The position numbers were made by a program, and so were the translations under genes. A model generated the notes under the pieces. That model was not told the DNA's origin. It was given only the letters and a program-made list of their open reading frames with translations, and ran no database searches. A DNA stretch of 64,000 nucleotides from NCBI RefSeq assembly GCF_006345805.1, contig NC_043000.1:125674001-125738000 (forward strand). The letters are read 5' to 3'. Position 1 is the first letter of the stretch; the number at the start of each line of letters is the position of its first letter. This stretch comes from Octopus sinensis (lineage: Eukaryota). Positions 3,575-35,236 of the stretch are shown here, in pieces.

Positions 3575-3756
3575 ATTTTTTTTCTCTCCTTGTTTCTCTC
3601 CGTGTTTCTTTTCTGTGTATCTTTCTGTTGTAGAGCGTAGGCTCGAAACGTAAAAGACTTGCTTTATTTATATTCCTGAGCGCCATACTAATACAATTGT
3701 TTGTTTGTACTCCACCTGCCTTCGTCTTTTGTTTATTTTCATAAAGCTTCCCGTTA
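3575..3756 (+). mobile_element. Copy of the same (TA)n-associated family
   Basis: tctttctgttgtagagcgtaggctcgaaacgtaaaagact ... cttcgtcttttgttt followed by (TA)n. Confidence 0.65.
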
Positions 3757-12814: not shown

Positions 12815-13438
12815 TGAGAATATACAACAAAACAAAAGATGAAGACGGATGTGTAAACAACAAACAGGTGTATTAGTTTTTAATACTCAGGAAGTGAGAA
12901 AGTCTTTTACATTTCGAGCCTTCGCTCTGTGACAGAAAGGAGCACAGCAATAGAGAAAAAAAAGCAGAAAGTACAAAAAAGTTTAGGAAAGTTCAAAAGG
13001 TTCAAACGTTGTGGTGTATTGGAGCGATTTCTTATCAATGGAAGAGTCCAGTGTAATCCATAGGTAGGAGAGGTGCAGCCGAAGTGTAGGAGTCCGAGTA
13101 TTGGAGAGTAGAAAGTCCAGGTAGAATAGTCCTAGAAAAGTTCGAATTGTTATGAGGTGGAGACAGGGTAAAATTGTTGTGACCACGTGAGCATGTAATA
13201 TATAGTGAGAATTTACAAAAAAAACAAAAGGCAGAGACAAGTATACTTGACAGCTAAACCTACAAGTTTTTTTCATTATCTCTCTGTTTATTTTCTCTTA
13301 TTCCTTTCTGTTGAAGAGCGTAGGCTCGAAACGTAAAAGACTATTTCATTTTCCCTAGTATAAAACTAATACACCTGCTTGTTCATACACCTGTCTTCAT
13401 CTTTTGTTTTTCTATAAATTTCAACTATATATAAATAT

Positions 13439-13507
<69 letters not shown>

Positions 13508-13680
13508 CATCATGATTGACTGCTAACTCCAAAAGTTTTTTTTATTCTCTCTGTTTATTTCCTCGTGTTCCTTTCTGTTGAAGAGCGTCGGCTCAAAACA
13601 TAAAAGACTTTCTTACCTTCCCAAGCATCAAACTAATACACCTGTCTTCATCTTTTGTTTTTCTGTAAATTTCAACTATG
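12815..13680. mobile_element. Cluster of a (TA)n-associated repeat family in both orientations (Penelope-like terminal repeat?)
   Basis: Minus copy 12815-12960, minus partial ~13203-13265, plus copies ~13275-13426 and ~13535-13678; shared core ctttctgttgaagagcgtaggctcgaaacgtaaaagact...acacctgtcttcatcttttgttt. Confidence 0.65.
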
Positions 13681-19155: not shown

Positions 19156-21727
19156 GTTCATTAAACACTATTATACTGTATATATTGTATTTGTTCAAAA
19201 ATATTTTTGAAATGCTTCATCACTCTTCCCATTTCCCAAATTATTTTTTTAATCTTTCTTCCTTTCAAAAATAGAAAATTTCATTTAGGAAAACAATTTA
19301 AATTAACATGTTTTTAATTAGTCGAGTTTATTAATTTGATTCAATGCCAATTCAAATTTGGAGCTTTTCCTATGATAGTTACTTTGAAATTGATTTAATT
19401 AATATCTGTAATCAAACTGATCAGGAGCAAATAAGGGAACACTTATGTTTGAAAATTAATTGTCAACCGATGGCTATCCCTTGTTATTCCTGATTGCTAA
19501 ATTGCTACAATTTTACAAGACATTTTTCTTTGTTGATGAGCAGGGAAGGTAGGAATGTTGTTGATGTTTGTTCAAAGGACATCACTGACTGAGTAGTCCA
19601 CAGACTAAATGTTTTCCAACTGTGGCCTTCCTGTCTTTCTCCATTTTTATCCTTCTGTAAAGTATTTAAGCAGCTAACTGGAAGGGTCGGTCATTAGCAT
19701 GTCAAATAAAGGGCTTAGAGGTTATTCTTCCAGCTTTTTATACAGGAGGAATTACAACCGTGTTTCGTGGTCTGCTACCACAACATCTCCTTTATAGGAT
19801 CCAGTTAGCTCAAGACGTCATCAGGAGGAACCACGTCCGGTTTCAGCCCCTACTCCTCTACTGTTTTGATGTGGCGGGGCCTCCCCTTTCGGCGGTGTCT
19901 TCAGCTCTGGTGTTGAGTGCATGTTTTCTTTCTTCTTTTTTCTGTTCCCTGGCCTCTTCAATGTAGCGTCAACGAGTGTCAGCGGGCGACTGACTGACTT
20001 GTCAAATTTTTTCCTTTTAAATACCTGCCACTAGGCTCCAGCAGGCAGCCCCAGCAAGTTGTCATGTGACACTGTCTCAAAAACATACCTGTGAGTGCTT
20101 TAATGAGTATATTGCAACAATACAGATGTAATATGAAAAGTAAACTTTCCAGGTTTTGTTTGGCAACACTGATAATTTAGTCTTTTCCGAAATGCTCACC
20201 AGAGGTGTTATTATTCAAAATAACAGCATCAGTGAGAAAGAAAGTGTATTGTGTGGTGGAATATGCACAAACTACATCATATTCTGAGTTCAAATTCTGC
20301 TATGGTCAGCTTTGTCCTTCATTCTTTTGGGAGTTGAGAAAATAAAGTCTCAGCCGAGTACTGGGGATGGTTTAATTGACTTACCTTCTTTCCCCTCAAA
20401 ATTATTGGTTGTGAACCCTATAATGGACAGCGTCCTGTCCAAGGGAACATTTTGATCTTGGTCACTTACACACCATGAAAACTGAGTAACTGGCCTCTTA
20501 GGGGCCAACAAAAAAAGAATATATAAATAAAATATTTAAAACAAGATTATCCAATATATTTTTCACTTGTGTTTGTTTATTTAAGATGTTCGGGTGTGAT
20601 TTTAGGGTGAGTTGGCTGCCATTTCTAACAGGTCATCTATCACATTGATACTCTGTCATCAGCTCAAGTAAAAATATCATTATTCAACCAAGTTGTTGCT
20701 CCTGTTGACTGTAAAATTCAAGAATATATACATAATTACAATCTGTAAAGGCCTGCTTAAATGATGAAGAGGGAAGGAAACTGAAAGTCTTTTGGTGGAG
20801 TCCTACGGATACTTGCAGCTTAAATCACTTTGTGATTTGGCAGACAACTTTATTATAGCATATGGTACACGTTAGTTCTTGTGGCACATGCTACAAATTC
20901 TTTGCTCAGACAGCTACTTACTGACTTGTACCTTTGTCGGTATTCAACTGAGATTAGTTCCACTGGGTCCAACACAATGAATCTCCATCATCATGAGTAA
21001 AAGGTAGCCATGCTTAACAATCAGTTAGCTGTTGATGTTATCCAGGTAAAGGTGGTGTTCCTTGTTTTCAGTTCCTCACTTACCAAATCCCTAAGTTTCC
21101 CTGGGAGAAATAATGATTATTTGCAGCTTATACACATCTCTCTCCCTCTCTCCTTCTCCCCATCTCCCATGTATCTCTTTCCCCTCCTATCTCTCCTCTC
21201 CTCTTTTTTTGCTACCCCCATTTCTCTCCCCCCTCTCTCTCTCCTTGGATCATTGTTTTTTCCTTTCTTTCCTTTTGTTACATATAGTACAGTCTTTTAT
21301 TGGGTATGTGTGTATATTCTCTTATTCCTAGGTTGATGTCAGCCACTGGATTGGGCATGCTGGTGTACTCCTTTCTAGAATTTACCCAGCTTCAGAAGTA
21401 TAAAAGCTAAAGTGGCCATGTGCACAGGAACTGGAATTAGAAGATCAGAACATAAACAAATTATGTTATGTCTGGTGCTCTACCAATCCTGCTTTCCCCC
21501 TGCAACACACACACATGTTGCAGCAACAGCATCTCACAAAGGAAGGTTGTAGTTCTCTGAATAAGAACTGACACGAGAGAGAGAGAGAGAGAGAAAGCAC
21601 TCTATAGTCCAGCTGTATCTTTCTAATGCCAGTGGCACAATGACCTGTATCCAGCCCATGTTGAAAGTGAGTGATGACCGAAGGTACATCCAACCATAAA
21701 AATTATGCACGTGCCTAAAATATATAT

Positions 21728-21948
21728 CTCAATCGAAGGAGAGGGGCTTTCTCTGTCCGGGTTGTGAATCCGTGGAATAAACTGCCGGACGAGATAGTGA
21801 AGATGCCGACGACCGCTCGGTTCAAAGTCTCTCTTGACCAGAAATGGCCTGAACTCTTTGTATGAACACCCTCCCTGTACATAACTCCATCTCCCCCTAC
21901 ATGGCCTTGCTTTTGCTTTTTGAGCCAAAAAATTAAATTAAATTAAAT
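21728..21948 (+). mobile_element. CR1-type LINE extreme 3' end
   Basis: Encodes RRGAFSVRVVNPWNKLPDEIVKMPTTARFKVSLDQKWPELFV*, followed by a short 3' UTR and an (aaatt)n tail. Confidence 0.85.
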
Positions 21949-21965
21949 ATATACATATATATATA

Positions 21966-22007
<42 letters not shown>

Positions 22008-22010
<3 letters not shown>

Positions 22011-22195
22011 AAGAATTCACAAAAAAACAAAAGACGAAGACTGGTGGTGTAGACAACAAACAGATGTATTAGTATAATGCTCAGGAAGTGAAAAAGTCTT
22101 TAATGTTTCGAGCTTATGCTCTTCCACAGAATGGAACGCAGAAAGAAACAAGGAGAAAAGATAAAGAATGTGTAGTGGTTAGCGATCTGTCATAT
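22008..22195 (-). mobile_element. Copy of the same (TA)n-associated family
   Basis: aacaaaagacgaagac...agtctttaatgtttcgagcttatgctcttccacagaa, directly after (TA)n. Confidence 0.65.
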
Positions 22196-22251
22196 ATAGT
22201 CAATAAAACATATATCAGAAAAGAAGCACACTCTAAAAAATAGATCGGTAA

Positions 22252-22529
22252 TTATTACAACAAAAGTTTTATATCTTGGACATAGAGTTACCAAAGGTTT
22301 CATATTCACAAAGACAAAGCCTTGTGGACAGCTCGGCAGACAGAAAATTTAAACTTTCTATGTCACAGATGCGAGGAAATTCTCAGAAATCGAAATTTAA
22401 GTCTTAATGTAGAAAGTTTAAATTTTTTGTCTTTTTATAGAGTCTGATGAGCTGTCTAAAAGGCTTTGGCTTTGTGGATACGAAACCTTTGGTAACTCTG
22501 TGTCCAAAATTTAAATTTCTGTTGTAATA
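22252..22529. mobile_element. Fold-back element carrying the hammerhead, abutting (TA)n
   Basis: 22252-22361 is an imperfect reverse complement of 22408-22529, e.g. ttggacatagagttaccaaaggtttc / gaaacctttggtaactctgtgtccaa. Confidence 0.8.
22436..22502 (+). ncRNA. Type I hammerhead ribozyme motif (canonical core)
   Basis: Stem I tatagagt/actctgtg; CTGATGA at 22444-22450; long stem II (g-c-tgtcta...tggata-c); GAAAC at 22482-22486; stem III ACC/GGT with a ttt loop; GUA triplet with predicted cleavage after 22494. Confidence 0.75.
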
Positions 22530-22533
22530 TATA

Positions 22534-22580
<47 letters not shown>

Positions 22581-22599
22581 GGACTCTCCTGTCATTAAT

Positions 22600-22882
22600 C
22601 GATGTATGAGGATTCAACAATTTCTTACTGAACAACCACACAGATGATTTGTTTATAGTGATCAAATGTTTGTGTAGACATATGCTCCCTCCCTCCATCA
22701 AATCGATATTATCTGTACAGGTGCAACTGCGTGCTGCATGTCAGATGTCGAAGTGATCGCAGAGCAATGTGAAATGAAGTGCTTTGCTCAAGAACACAAT
22801 GAAACACCTGGTCTGAGAATCGAACCCACGATCTCGCAGTCATGAGTTCAACACCCTCGCCACTAAGTCAGGCACTTTCACA
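22600..22882 (-). mobile_element. SINE with a family C-like head; similar copies at 55350-55610 (-) and 5870-6105 (+)
   Basis: agagcaa(t/c)(g/a)tgaaatgaagtgctttgctcaagaa(c/t)acaa shared between 22.7 kb and 55.5 kb. Confidence 0.7.
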
Positions 22883-23037
22883 CATGGAAATGTTAATGAT
22901 TTTCTCTTGTGTTGTATATACCTGATTATAAAGGACTGCTAAAGAAGGCAAGTCCTTGCAAGACCTGTCCTTTGGGGTCATGGAAAAAATTGGAAGTATA
23001 ATTGCATGCTTGTATGCATATAGATTTCAATATAAAT

Positions 23038-23722
23038 AGGCACAGGCATGGCTGTCTAATTAAGAAGTTTGTGTGGCAACTGCATGGATTCAGGTTTAGT
23101 CCCTCTGTGCAGCACTTTACTTGTCAAGTGTGTTCTATTATAGCTCCATGCCGATCAATGCCTTGTGAGTCCATTTGCTAAATAGAAAATGAAAGAAACC
23201 CATCACACACACATGCGCACGCATGTGTGTGTTTTACATTTGCACTGTATGTGATGTTGTTGTCACATCTGTTAAGCAATCATTTGCTGACTTTGTGCCT
23301 TCAAAGACTTGTGGAATCCCTTACTTGAAAAACAAGCGAAAAGATAACAACAGTAGTTTTTCCACTTGTAAACCTATGTCACAGTAATAATGTATATGTC
23401 TAACACATGCTGGCAAATAAACATGTAAGAGAAACAAACACGAGTGTGTGTGTGTGTGCATATTTATGTGTATATATAGGCACAGGCACAGCTCTGTGGT
23501 AAGAAGCTTGTTTCCCAACCACATGGTTCCGGGTTCAGTCCCACTGTGTGGCACCATCAGCAAGTATCTTCTACTATAACCTCAGGCCAACTAAAGCCTT
23601 GTGAATGGATTTGGTAGGCAGAAACTGAAAGAGCCTGTCGTATGTAATATATATATTTGTGTCTGTGTTCATCCCCATACCCTACCACTGTCGCCATTGC
23701 TTGACAGTTGATGTTGGTATGT
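23038..23722 (+). mobile_element. Two SINE family B heads (23038-23205, 23479-23722)
   Basis: ggcacaggca(t/c)...ctgtggtaagaagcttg...ggttccgggttcagtcccactgtgtggcacc. Confidence 0.75.
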
Positions 23723-24154
23723 TCAGGGCTGTCACATGACTTTTAGAAGCCCCCCCCCCCCCGCAACATCTTTTTCCAGGCTTCATCTCTTCAATCAAAA
23801 TTCATAATCTACACACCTTTATTATATGCAAAAATCAAACATAGTCCCTTACAGCTTGCTGTATTTTAGAATCATCACAGCACTCTGCTGTGATGATTCT
23901 AAAACACAACATATAAAAAAAACTAACTGTATATTTTTCCTACTCCTCTGTACATAGATAGATACACACACACACACAAACTTTTGTATGTGTGTGTCTA
24001 TGTGTGAGTGTATGTGCGCACGCACGCGTTCACTCTCGCATGCCTTGCTTTTGATACAGAAAGAATTTTGTCTCCAGTTTTTATTGCCTTAGGAGGTCAA
24101 AGGCAACTGTTCTGGGTACAAAGTGACCAGCTTTTCACCATCAAATAACAACGC

Positions 24155-24186
<32 letters not shown>

Positions 24187-24191
<5 letters not shown>

Positions 24192-25055
24192 TATTCGAAG
24201 AAATTCCAACTCTGTCTGTTTTTTATGTTTTACTAGCAGTATCGCCCGGCGTTGCTCAGGTTTGTAAGGGAAATAACTATAAAGCATTTTTAGAGAGTTA
24301 TAGCCAAAAAATAGCAAAAAAATGGAAAAAAATGATGGTGAATTTTTTTTCGAGATTTAAAAAAGGTAGAGTTGCATCCCCTAGACAATTTGTGGTTCGT
24401 ATTCCTGATTCTCGACCCCATGTCGAATTTATCGATTTTTTTCAGAACTGGGGGAACTTTTCAAAATTTTCGCTGCGTTAGTTTTGAATTATGACACTGG
24501 GCAATGTGTGTGTCAAGTTTCATCAGAATCGGTTGAAAGCCGTGGTCAGGGTGAGGGTACGAGAAAACAGACACACAGAAACACGCACAGACAAACTGCC
24601 GTTTATATAGAGAGAGATTTATATTCTTTATAATATTAATGTAGAATATAGAATATATAGTACAAAAAGTATATATAGTAGTATAATGAAATGAAGAATT
24701 GATTGTTTTTATTGAATAGATGAAATATTGAATATAAAATATTAAGGGACTAGTATACTTTCTTGCATTAAAGCAGTCTCCAAGGTCCCACGTTGTGACA
24801 GGAGTGTTTCAACTGTTGAAACACTCCTGTCACCACCTGGGACCTTGAAGACCGCCTTAATGCAAGAAAGTATACTAGTCCCTTAATATTTTATATTCAA
24901 TATTTCATCTATTCAATAAAAACAATCAATTCTTCATTTCATTATACTACTATATATACTTTTTGTACTATATATTCTATATTCTACATTAATATTATAA
25001 AGAATATAAATAAAACATAAAAAACAGAGTTGGAATTTCTTTCAATAATATATAT
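24187..25055. repeat. ~240 bp-arm palindromic (fold-back) element centred on 24814, left arm interrupted by a Helitron
   Basis: 24618-24813 is a gap-free reverse complement of 24815-25010 with about 5 mismatches, all near the centre; outer arm 24187-24232 matches 25011-25055. Confidence 0.9.
24233..24617 (-). mobile_element. Non-autonomous Helitron (385 bp)
   Basis: On the minus strand it begins TC and ends CTAG with a GC-rich subterminal hairpin (cccggcgttgctcagg). It is inserted between A and T with no TSD; the empty site is reconstructable from the opposite arm of the host palindrome. Confidence 0.85.
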
Positions 25056-33271: not shown

Positions 33272-33452
33272 GTTCTGGCAAATCATATACTATGATGGGA
33301 ACAGCAGACGAGAAAGGAATAATACCTCGTTTGTGTGATGCCCTTTTTGAGAAAATAGCCACAAATGATGACCCTGATTTGACCTACAAAGTAGAAGTAT
33401 CATATATGGAAATATATAACGAGAAAGTTCATGATCTTCTGGATCCAAAAGG
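33272..33452 (+). CDS. KIF13: Kinesin-3 (KIF13A/B, Khc-73-like) motor-domain exon containing the P-loop end
   Basis: Polypyrimidine tract plus ctag| acceptor at 33271; encodes (G)SGKSYTMMGTADEKGIIPRLCDALFEKIATNDDPDLTYKVEVSYMEIYNEKVHDLLDPK(G); donor GG|gtaagt at 33453; 181 nt. The ending 'DLLDPKG' is characteristic of KIF13. Confidence 0.95.
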
Positions 33453-35236
33453 GTAAGTAAAACAAAATGGAGACTTATTAAATCAATTACTTTTCAATCC
33501 TGCAATAACGTAATCTGAAATGGATTGTCTCCCTTACAATAGCTGCTGACCACTAGGGGCAAACCATGTATATATAATCTCCATTTGTTCTTCAATTATT
33601 ATGGTGTTTGATTTTAAAGGGTGGAGTCCTGCTTCTGTTTCATTGTTATGTTGTTGTGAACAAAAGCATAAGATTACTGATAATAATAGAAACGCTAATA
33701 ACATACAATCAATGAGAGGATAGGTAAATAGACGCTAAATGTAATAAAGAAGAGGGGGGAAAATATATAACATAGAAACAATTTCAAAAAATGTAACATT
33801 AAAGGTGTTTGTGGGCGTTTAGAATCTCACAGCACATAAATGTATGGTGTTATATTTGTATAAGCAGCATGTTTGGCTCTTGGTTTGATATGAGAATCAA
33901 CATACATCAAAGATTATTGCTAAATCCCTTGTTCTTCGTGTTTGTCATGGAAACATTGACATGGGAGTTCAGGCATGAGAGCTCGTCTATGTTAATGCCG
34001 CTACAATAATTAGATGAATCCATTAAGCCCAAAGATTGTATACAAGTTTGATCTCAAATCAAAGGGCCTTCACATCCCAAATTTTCCTGCAGTAAATATG
34101 ACACTATGCTCCAGAGCACAGGGTCCAGTAAATGGCCTGTGTGCTGTTTTTCTGGATGGTAGCAGTAGTGGTGGTGATGGAAACTGTGCAATAACTGTCT
34201 TCTGACATTGGTGGTAGAACTGCGGCTCAGTGAAGAAGACTCTGTACAGTCATTTGACTAGCTAGAAATAACAGTCAAATCTCTCTCAAACTACACACTA
34301 CTGTTGAAAAAAAAAAAAAAGAAGACACTGGATAATGCTGTCCTTGTTACATTGGATGGTCATGGTTAGAATTCCTTTAATTATAGGTCTTATTGACCTA
34401 GGCTAATTTAAGGCTAAACAACAACCATTAAGTTAATGAATACTTTATTTAATGGCATACAAGACACACTTTTTCCTCCAAAAATATCTCAAAATATCCC
34501 TGCAGCTCCTATATGTGAAGTTGGGCCTCCCAGAATTTTTTCTTGATTAATCACTTCTGAAATTTGGTGCATCTAATATGCTTGTGCATCTTTTATGCCA
34601 TCAAACACAGAAATAAATCCGACATGAAGATTAAACTGAAACCCAAGTCTGAAAGCCATGTCTGAAAACCAAAAAATAAATCCGATGTGAAGATTAAACT
34701 GAAACCCAAGTCTGAGTTCAAATGCAAAGCATATTCTAGAAACATCTTTCTATGTTGGTTGTTTACTATCTCAAATTGTATTGTAAATTGCATTGTAGTA
34801 ATAGCAGCAGCAGATTAAACAGAAACCAGAATCACTTTACTGGAAACATTAACTCTTTGAAAGAGATACATAAACAGTGTATGAGTAAACACGATACGAG
34901 AACATTTACAGAAATAGATAAATATACTATAAAGATATTAGTCAGACCTGTTGATAATGGGAAGACAGTTTTAGCATATATGTGTAATGTGTGTGTGTGT
35001 GTATGTTTACAAAGAAGTGGTTGACAGTGACTTTGAAGTGTCAGTGAGGGTTAGCTTTATCAGACTGTCTGCTGAATCCAGCCCACAGTAAACTTTGAAG
35101 TCACTATCAACATTTTCCTTGTTAAAAATATACTTAAATGTATTAAGTGATCAGTCGGTTAATATTTGGCTGGTTTTTATGTGTGAATACATAAAAATAA
35201 TGCGCATTATTTGGCTGTGTGAGCATCGTGTGTGTG

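Follow-up and report, generated by a model that had tools for sequence, protein, structure and literature searches.

A truncated copy in inverted orientation and a tail on one of the two ends are typical of Penelope-like elements (PLEs) (PMC8557442, PMC3846280). In the inverted insertions described for Penelope itself, the terminal repeats (pLTRs) stand head to head in an AT-rich target, with two 3' end points and a single tail (PMC3846280; PMC11167929). This tail lies between two start sites of the reverse transcriptase (RT), and in vitro the enzyme cleaves both strands of DNA and extends them (PMC11167929); self-priming on an antisense template has been proposed for head-to-head junctions (PMC3846280). 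The pLTRs of PLEs can also carry type I hammerhead ribozymes with a small palindromic helix III, and such motifs have been reported in pairs, one on each strand and 100-700 bp from each other (Cervera and de la Pena 2014, PMC4209133). In the Hydra clade, RWK, DKT, CxCx5C, CxxC and CxH motifs are given as features (Craig et al. 2021, PMC8557442). In the supplement of that study nearly all members have (TA)n targets; one comes from octopus and carries a hammerhead that differs from the one considered here, and in another, Penelope-13_HM, an inverted 5' copy puts a hammerhead on both strands. Penelope-like expansions in an octopus genome have already been published (PMC13282606).

The window analyzed here is a stretch of 64,000 nt of Octopus sinensis DNA in which a hammerhead motif lies beside a broken mirror copy of itself. 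We consider it very probable that the two are the head-to-head 3' ends of one heavily truncated Hydra-clade PLE insertion, likely neutral; its fold-back, by prediction, leaves the ribozyme permanently unfolded in KIF13 pre-mRNA. This reading draws on family membership, the order of open reading frame (ORF) and ribozyme, a recurring one-tailed layout, the (TA)n target and decay of the core at background rate. The insertion would be of a known kind among inverted Penelope insertions, from a family absent from those supplement rows of PMC8557442 that we examined. Its features, in window coordinates, are as follows.

22436..22502, + strand: type I hammerhead motif, intact at 13 of 13 scored core positions, with cleavage predicted after 22494
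22407..22529, + strand: right arm, a 5'-truncated 3' end (pLTR) that stops at the short, untailed end point; (TA)n follows
22197..22407, - strand: left arm, inverted and longer, also a 5'-truncated 3' end of this family; its hammerhead is broken
22197..22254, - strand: tail of about 58 nt, on the left-arm end only
22362..22407, - strand: loop left unpaired in the fold-back, formed by additional 5' element sequence belonging to the left arm
21950..22008, no strand: (TA)n tract left of the composite insertion
22530..22578, no strand: (TA)n tract right of the insertion
33274..33453, + strand: following coding exon of the KIF13-like host gene, encoding motor residues 105-164

The hammerhead and its inverted twin

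The original prediction placed every conserved hammerhead base in order at 22436-22502, and a base-by-base check on the + strand confirms it: C3-A9, G12-A14, A15.1-U16.1 and H17 are all present, together with three stems. Stem I pairs 22436-22443 with 22495-22502 (8 bp, two of them G-U). CUGAUGA occupies 22444-22450 and is followed by a stem II of 12 positions (about 13 bp with the bulge), closed by G22451-C22481, with C22452 bulged and one A.G mismatch. GAAA (22482-22485), a 3-bp stem III with a UUU loop and the GUA triplet (22492-22494) complete the motif, whose core pattern has a single match in the window and none in 100 shuffles. The Rfam hammerhead models, to which the prediction had also looked, were of no help: against 20000-25000 no family matched at E<=1, possibly owing to the long stem II. 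In isolation the motif is marginal, the hammerhead fold lying 1.1 kcal/mol above the minimum over a 71-nt span, and the minimum-energy fold of 22430-22510 differs from it. Judging from the bases, then, the motif is real and self-cleavage a prediction.

Like the PLE hammerheads of PMC4209133, the motif is of type I, lies in a pLTR and has a partner on the opposite strand. Unlike them, the window family has a longer helix I with an internal loop and a 3-bp helix III, which makes activity of the source element as a monomer plausible. Its hammerhead sequence is not among the Hydra rows consulted in the PMC8557442 supplement, and its stem II, with 13 bp and a bulge, is longer.

The inverted copy upstream had been correctly recognized. 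A 74-nt ungapped arm is 86% complementary, and the computed fold-back hairpin has an energy of about -134 kcal/mol (z = -15.4). Several details of the original description need revision. The two arms are not separated by some 50 nt; they abut head to head at 22407, overlapping by about 1 nt, and what forms the 45-nt loop is additional 5' sequence from the left arm. Of the limits first given (22252-22529) the right one holds, and the left arm continues to 22197, so that the insertion spans 22197-22529, inside a (TA)n tract. The core of the left arm (22339-22333) is indeed broken, by A6>C and C11.1>U; the accompanying 13-nt deletion takes out almost all of stem I's 5' strand. A contig from another sample covers 22307-22460, across the junction, which is therefore no assembly artefact. 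The right arm matches a natural copy of the family at 88%, and its non-CpG divergence from the family majority is 4.3%, a figure biased low by a sample retrieved with the window sequence.

A Hydra-clade family with one-tailed pairs

Counting genomic copies had been proposed at the outset, and the search of the 2.72-Gb genome returned a dispersed family with 529 candidates, 40 of which were scored; a 24-mer search allowing up to 1 mismatch gave 69 matches, against 0 in the control. Remnants of RT, a CxCx5C linker and GIY-YIG lie upstream on the ribozyme strand at six loci (L031, L032, L067, L068, L070 and L071). At the last four, broken ORF remnants follow in order when compared with an intact 708-residue sister ORF from the same genome, to which they are mostly 32-60% identical. 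At L068 and L071 a second ribozyme-bearing repeat (5' pLTR) precedes the ORF and an inverted copy lies beyond it. The window copy itself has no ORF, and no intact ORF of its family was found among the loci examined. The motifs RWK, DKT, CxCx5C, CxxC and CxH (around the catalytic E/N) were found in L067, L068, L071, L032, L040 and L101. From ORF start to 3' end, L067 measures about 2.7 kb; Hydra-clade elements are under about 3 kb. The pLTRs are both direct and inverted, the hammerhead lies inside the pLTR and the tail at one end, as in PLEs, and (TA)3 occurs within 24 nt of 47 of the 78 family ends.

Pfam gave no RT or GIY-YIG match for the six remnants and two intact sister ORFs, so that the protein assignment rests on the motifs, on the 32-60% identity and on Atlas neighbours: the sister ORF sits at 0.96-0.99 beside clusters with GIY-YIG, RVT_1 and HTH_animal families. 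A PDB sequence search returned nothing below E 0.17. By eye, no CCHH finger was seen in the GIY-YIG core of the intact sister ORFs; in the window family itself this core is decayed and interrupted by an insertion. An early assignment to the Neptune clade was dropped once RWK, DKT and CxCx5C fitted the Hydra description. With Hydra-1_Obim, Penelope-13_HM and Penelope-1_SK (PMC8557442) the family shares RWK, DKT, CxCx5C and CxxC/CxH, a C-terminal GIY-YIG, short length, (TA)n targets and a type I hammerhead near the 3' end. On this sequence evidence we assign both arms to a dispersed Penelope-like retroelement family of the Hydra clade, as copies of its 3' ends (pLTRs).

Two observations concern the proteins and their relatives. 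At L031, L032, L033, L037 and L038 a Thr/Asp-rich, repeat-like insertion separates the linker from the remaining GIY-YIG core, reminiscent of the inserts reported for rotifer Penelope ORFs (PMC3846280). The genome also holds two young Hydra-type sister families (L061:2496-4646, L062, L063:2444-4624, L064, L065 and L066), with ORFs of 664-766 codons from stop to stop, which Pfam misses, and hammerhead-like motifs of their own; the L061/L062 family has CCGAAGA where CUGANGA is expected.

Family 3' ends stop at two points about 58 nt apart. Among 78 ends scored, 32 were short, 4 were cut earlier and 42 were tailed, a few of these last being internal 5' repeats that run into the ORF; in full elements the tail continues toward the ORF start, as at locus L101, where the 5' pLTR reads into the ORF. 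Head-to-head pairs account for 22 rows, or 20 loci after removal of 2 internal repeats of insertions already counted, and there are 0 convergent pairs. One end is cut too early for scoring at 3 of these loci. In 16 of the 17 scorable pairs exactly one end carries the tail, be it the main or the inverted copy, an outcome with a probability of about 1.4e-4 at even odds; five pair loci had been chosen for appearing as pairs and not by tail state, and most loci were taken with 1.5-kb flanks. The exception is a tail/tail pair within a later palindromic duplication. This duplication (L035:3877-8279) is 4.4 kb long, 95.7% identical, and includes the family end and flank.

Head-to-head pLTRs, one tail, two 3' end points and an AT-rich target are all shared with the inverted Penelope insertions of PMC3846280 and PMC11167929. 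The tail is longer here (about 58 nt, against 30-40 nt there), and what the available text of those papers words as 'optional' or 'often' is in the window family a counted rule. Non-LTR retrozymes likewise have a type I hammerhead and a PLE origin (bioRxiv 10.64898/2026.07.22.740005); they form head-to-tail tandem units, in contrast to the head-to-head pair and ORF-bearing relatives described here, and no retrozyme-type tandem array is found at the window locus.

A short, non-coding insertion with inverted arms and TA flanks might suggest a MITE or fold-back DNA element, moved by a transposase and holding a hammerhead in its terminal inverted repeats by coincidence. The two ends are unequal, with the tail on one of them. 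Spacers between paired ends measure between 147 nt and more than 4 kb and contain remnants of RT and endonuclease (EN), and the 5' truncation points differ at every locus. These properties, together with the ORF-linked copies, which already largely refute a DNA element, leave that origin a very small probability.

How would a retroelement produce such a pair? The element's endonuclease would cut both strands of the (TA)n tract, and the RT would prime both DNA ends with a single RNA as template, using two start sites some 58 nt apart, one per end; the two cDNAs would then stop early and join at 22407. We infer that two-ended priming from one RNA is the origin of the head-to-head pair. The near strictness of the one-tail rule fits a single enzyme-RNA complex that primes both DNA ends and has two start sites. 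An inverted copy could instead have been made after insertion, as the tail/tail pair in the 4.4-kb duplication illustrates, or by the antisense-template self-priming published for head-to-head junctions (PMC3846280). Later duplication would copy the same end twice, whereas the ends of the window pair and of 15 other pairs differ by a tail; no long palindrome was found at the 22407 junction; and cutting and extension of both strands from two start sites has been seen in vitro (PMC11167929). We regard these other routes as very improbable, and were one of them correct, the origin of the hairpin would change but not its neutrality. As a transposon record, the value of the family lies in a clean count that bears on PLE integration.

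Core decay and the KIF13 intron

The exon at 33274-33453 has its best match in KIF13B residues 105-164, and the preceding KIF13-like exon ends about 150 nt before the window. The insertion thus lies in a 33-kb intron with the ribozyme on the sense strand, as first proposed. The location raises the question of whether the hammerhead has been retained for a function in the host.

Decay was followed in an alignment of 56 copies (one duplicate among the 57 found was dropped), a sample biased toward window-like copies. The family core is CUGACGA, so that CUGAUGA in the window represents tolerated CpG decay. All 13 core positions are intact in 7 of the 56 copies, 8.2 being expected from column rates. 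In the 41 copies that cover the upstream flank, and to which the flank comparison is limited, G>A changes at the catalytic G8 and G12 (24/82) are as frequent as at flank CpG sites (49/164; p=1.0), and non-CpG changes affect 15 of 197 core positions against 50 of 684 in the flank (p=0.88). An apparent protection of core CpG sites over all 56 copies (31% vs 43% in the flank, p=0.007, uncorrected) was rejected as an artefact that disappears when the flank-lacking copies are removed. Among 1344 stem-pair cells of the 56 decayed copies, 107 are broken and 4 doubly changed. In a divergent relative, L075, stem II is kept through two double changes in 7 bp, read by eye, as would be expected if source elements once needed the fold. 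The median non-CpG divergence of 8.7%, again from a sample biased toward window-like copies, indicates that the family is old.

Across paralogues, then, the aligned sequences have catalytic bases that decay at the flank rate and a core that is not conserved beyond background. This is one half of the outcome that the original prediction had itself named as refuting it, the other being no cleavage of the isolated motif: CUGAUGA and GAAA fare no better than background in family copies. Its fallback, a neutral transposon remnant from a Penelope-like terminus, gains from family membership, recurring layout and core decay alike. Neutrality here is a property of the family, measured across paralogues in one genome, and is no proof for the window copy itself. 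The right arm is among the best-preserved copies; it may have kept its core by chance, as about 1 copy in 8 does. The ribozyme would have served the element's own RNA and not the host.

The more ambitious claim was that the hairpin, or its A-to-I editing, gates cleavage of the KIF13 intron. Such co-option would mean that a hammerhead shut by its inverted twin acts as a self-cleaving switch in a neuronal motor gene, the sense ribozyme cutting the intron and tuning KIF13 output whenever editing, a helicase or another protein opens the hairpin. An intact core on the sense strand of a confirmed intron, the length of the duplex, and the protein assistance reported in vitro for one PLE hammerhead (PMC11167929) all lend themselves to this idea. 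Against it, the inverted layout is the family default, occurring at 20 loci, the catalytic bases stand at background, and the two window arms have no derived change in common in the alignment of family copies.

Computed folds point the same way. The fold-back has -134.6 kcal/mol and the ribozyme-constrained fold -75.0, a gap of 59.6 kcal/mol. The antisense arm is transcribed before the ribozyme arm. Folding of successive prefixes has it pairing with 13 of 15 ribozyme bases when the transcript reaches 22450, and with 57 of 67 by 22502. We made increasing fractions of the 88 upstream As unpairable, which sets an upper bound on editing in what are equilibrium predictions without proteins: the hairpin stayed ahead by 34-54 kcal/mol with 25% of them, 19-41 with 50%, 12-28 with 75% and 5.6 with all 88. 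Since it wins even in the last case, editing is unlikely to gate the ribozyme. In hammerhead chemistry, editing of the right-arm As would hit core adenines. Modeling thus predicts that the duplex sequesters the ribozyme during its synthesis and would hold even if the upstream arm were edited completely. The proposal that the upstream arm blocks folding finds support in these folds, with the qualification that the block would be constitutive and not a gate.

Published activities do little for a switch either: the metazoan PLE hammerheads tested had low activity (PMC4209133), and in one PLE no reads ended at the cut site (PMC11167929). All considered, we hold co-option of the window copy to be highly unlikely. 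If it were nonetheless true, the same accidental on/off pairs would sit in many introns and could link editing of double-stranded RNA to transcript truncation. According to the abstract of bioRxiv 10.64898/2026.07.22.740005, vertebrate retrozymes are excluded from introns; by extension, shielding by the inverted arm could be the reason why this copy survived, and not a regulatory design. In titles and abstract openings, a scope with most subscription literature outside it, we found no description of a hairpin- or editing-gated intronic hammerhead, nor of cephalopod hammerheads. Any transcript of the hairpin would likely serve, incidentally, as a dsRNA substrate for editing within the intron; as a regulatory element, the insertion is most likely of no consequence.

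Element B and other neighbouring repeats

The insertion is abutted by a different repeat, which we call element B and which has further copies in the window.

22009..22193, - strand: element B, a separate abutting repeat of about 180-185 nt with a minimal-hammerhead-shaped core that has U6 (22129-22123)
3594-3738, 12817-12950, 13253-13420 and 13537-13645: further element B copies

The segment 22009-22190 was considered as a 3' end of the window PLE and rejected, being a separate repeat. The layout of its core includes an extra base after A9, a G-C closing pair and an ACGU palindrome. Exact pattern matches number 17,322 with U at position 6 against 306 with A, and all four bases occur at position 7. 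The 3' end is fixed at (TA)n, and most of 24 loci start near one 5' point, a few extending further. A search with two sister ORFs found no PLE ORF remnant within 1.5 kb of these 24 loci. From its sequence, element B could be either a dead ribozyme that has out-spread the live form or a natural core variant that works. The ratio of U6 to A6 bears on whether PLE hammerheads need to cleave at all. Within the same titles and abstract openings, subscription literature again being mostly outside the scope, no natural A6U hammerhead and no SINE-like non-autonomous Penelope hammerhead was found described.

Element B or a relative also lies directly against a family end at L023 (G000:C15:25959550) and at L003/L024 (G000:C6:55642819), the junction at L023 being nearly the same as in the window; a shared (TA)n target likely accounts for this proximity. 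Elsewhere in the same intron, weak matches to miRNA models, below gathering scores, fall at 24628-25000 of the window, where a 186-nt inverted repeat is 97% complementary with a 1-nt spacer.
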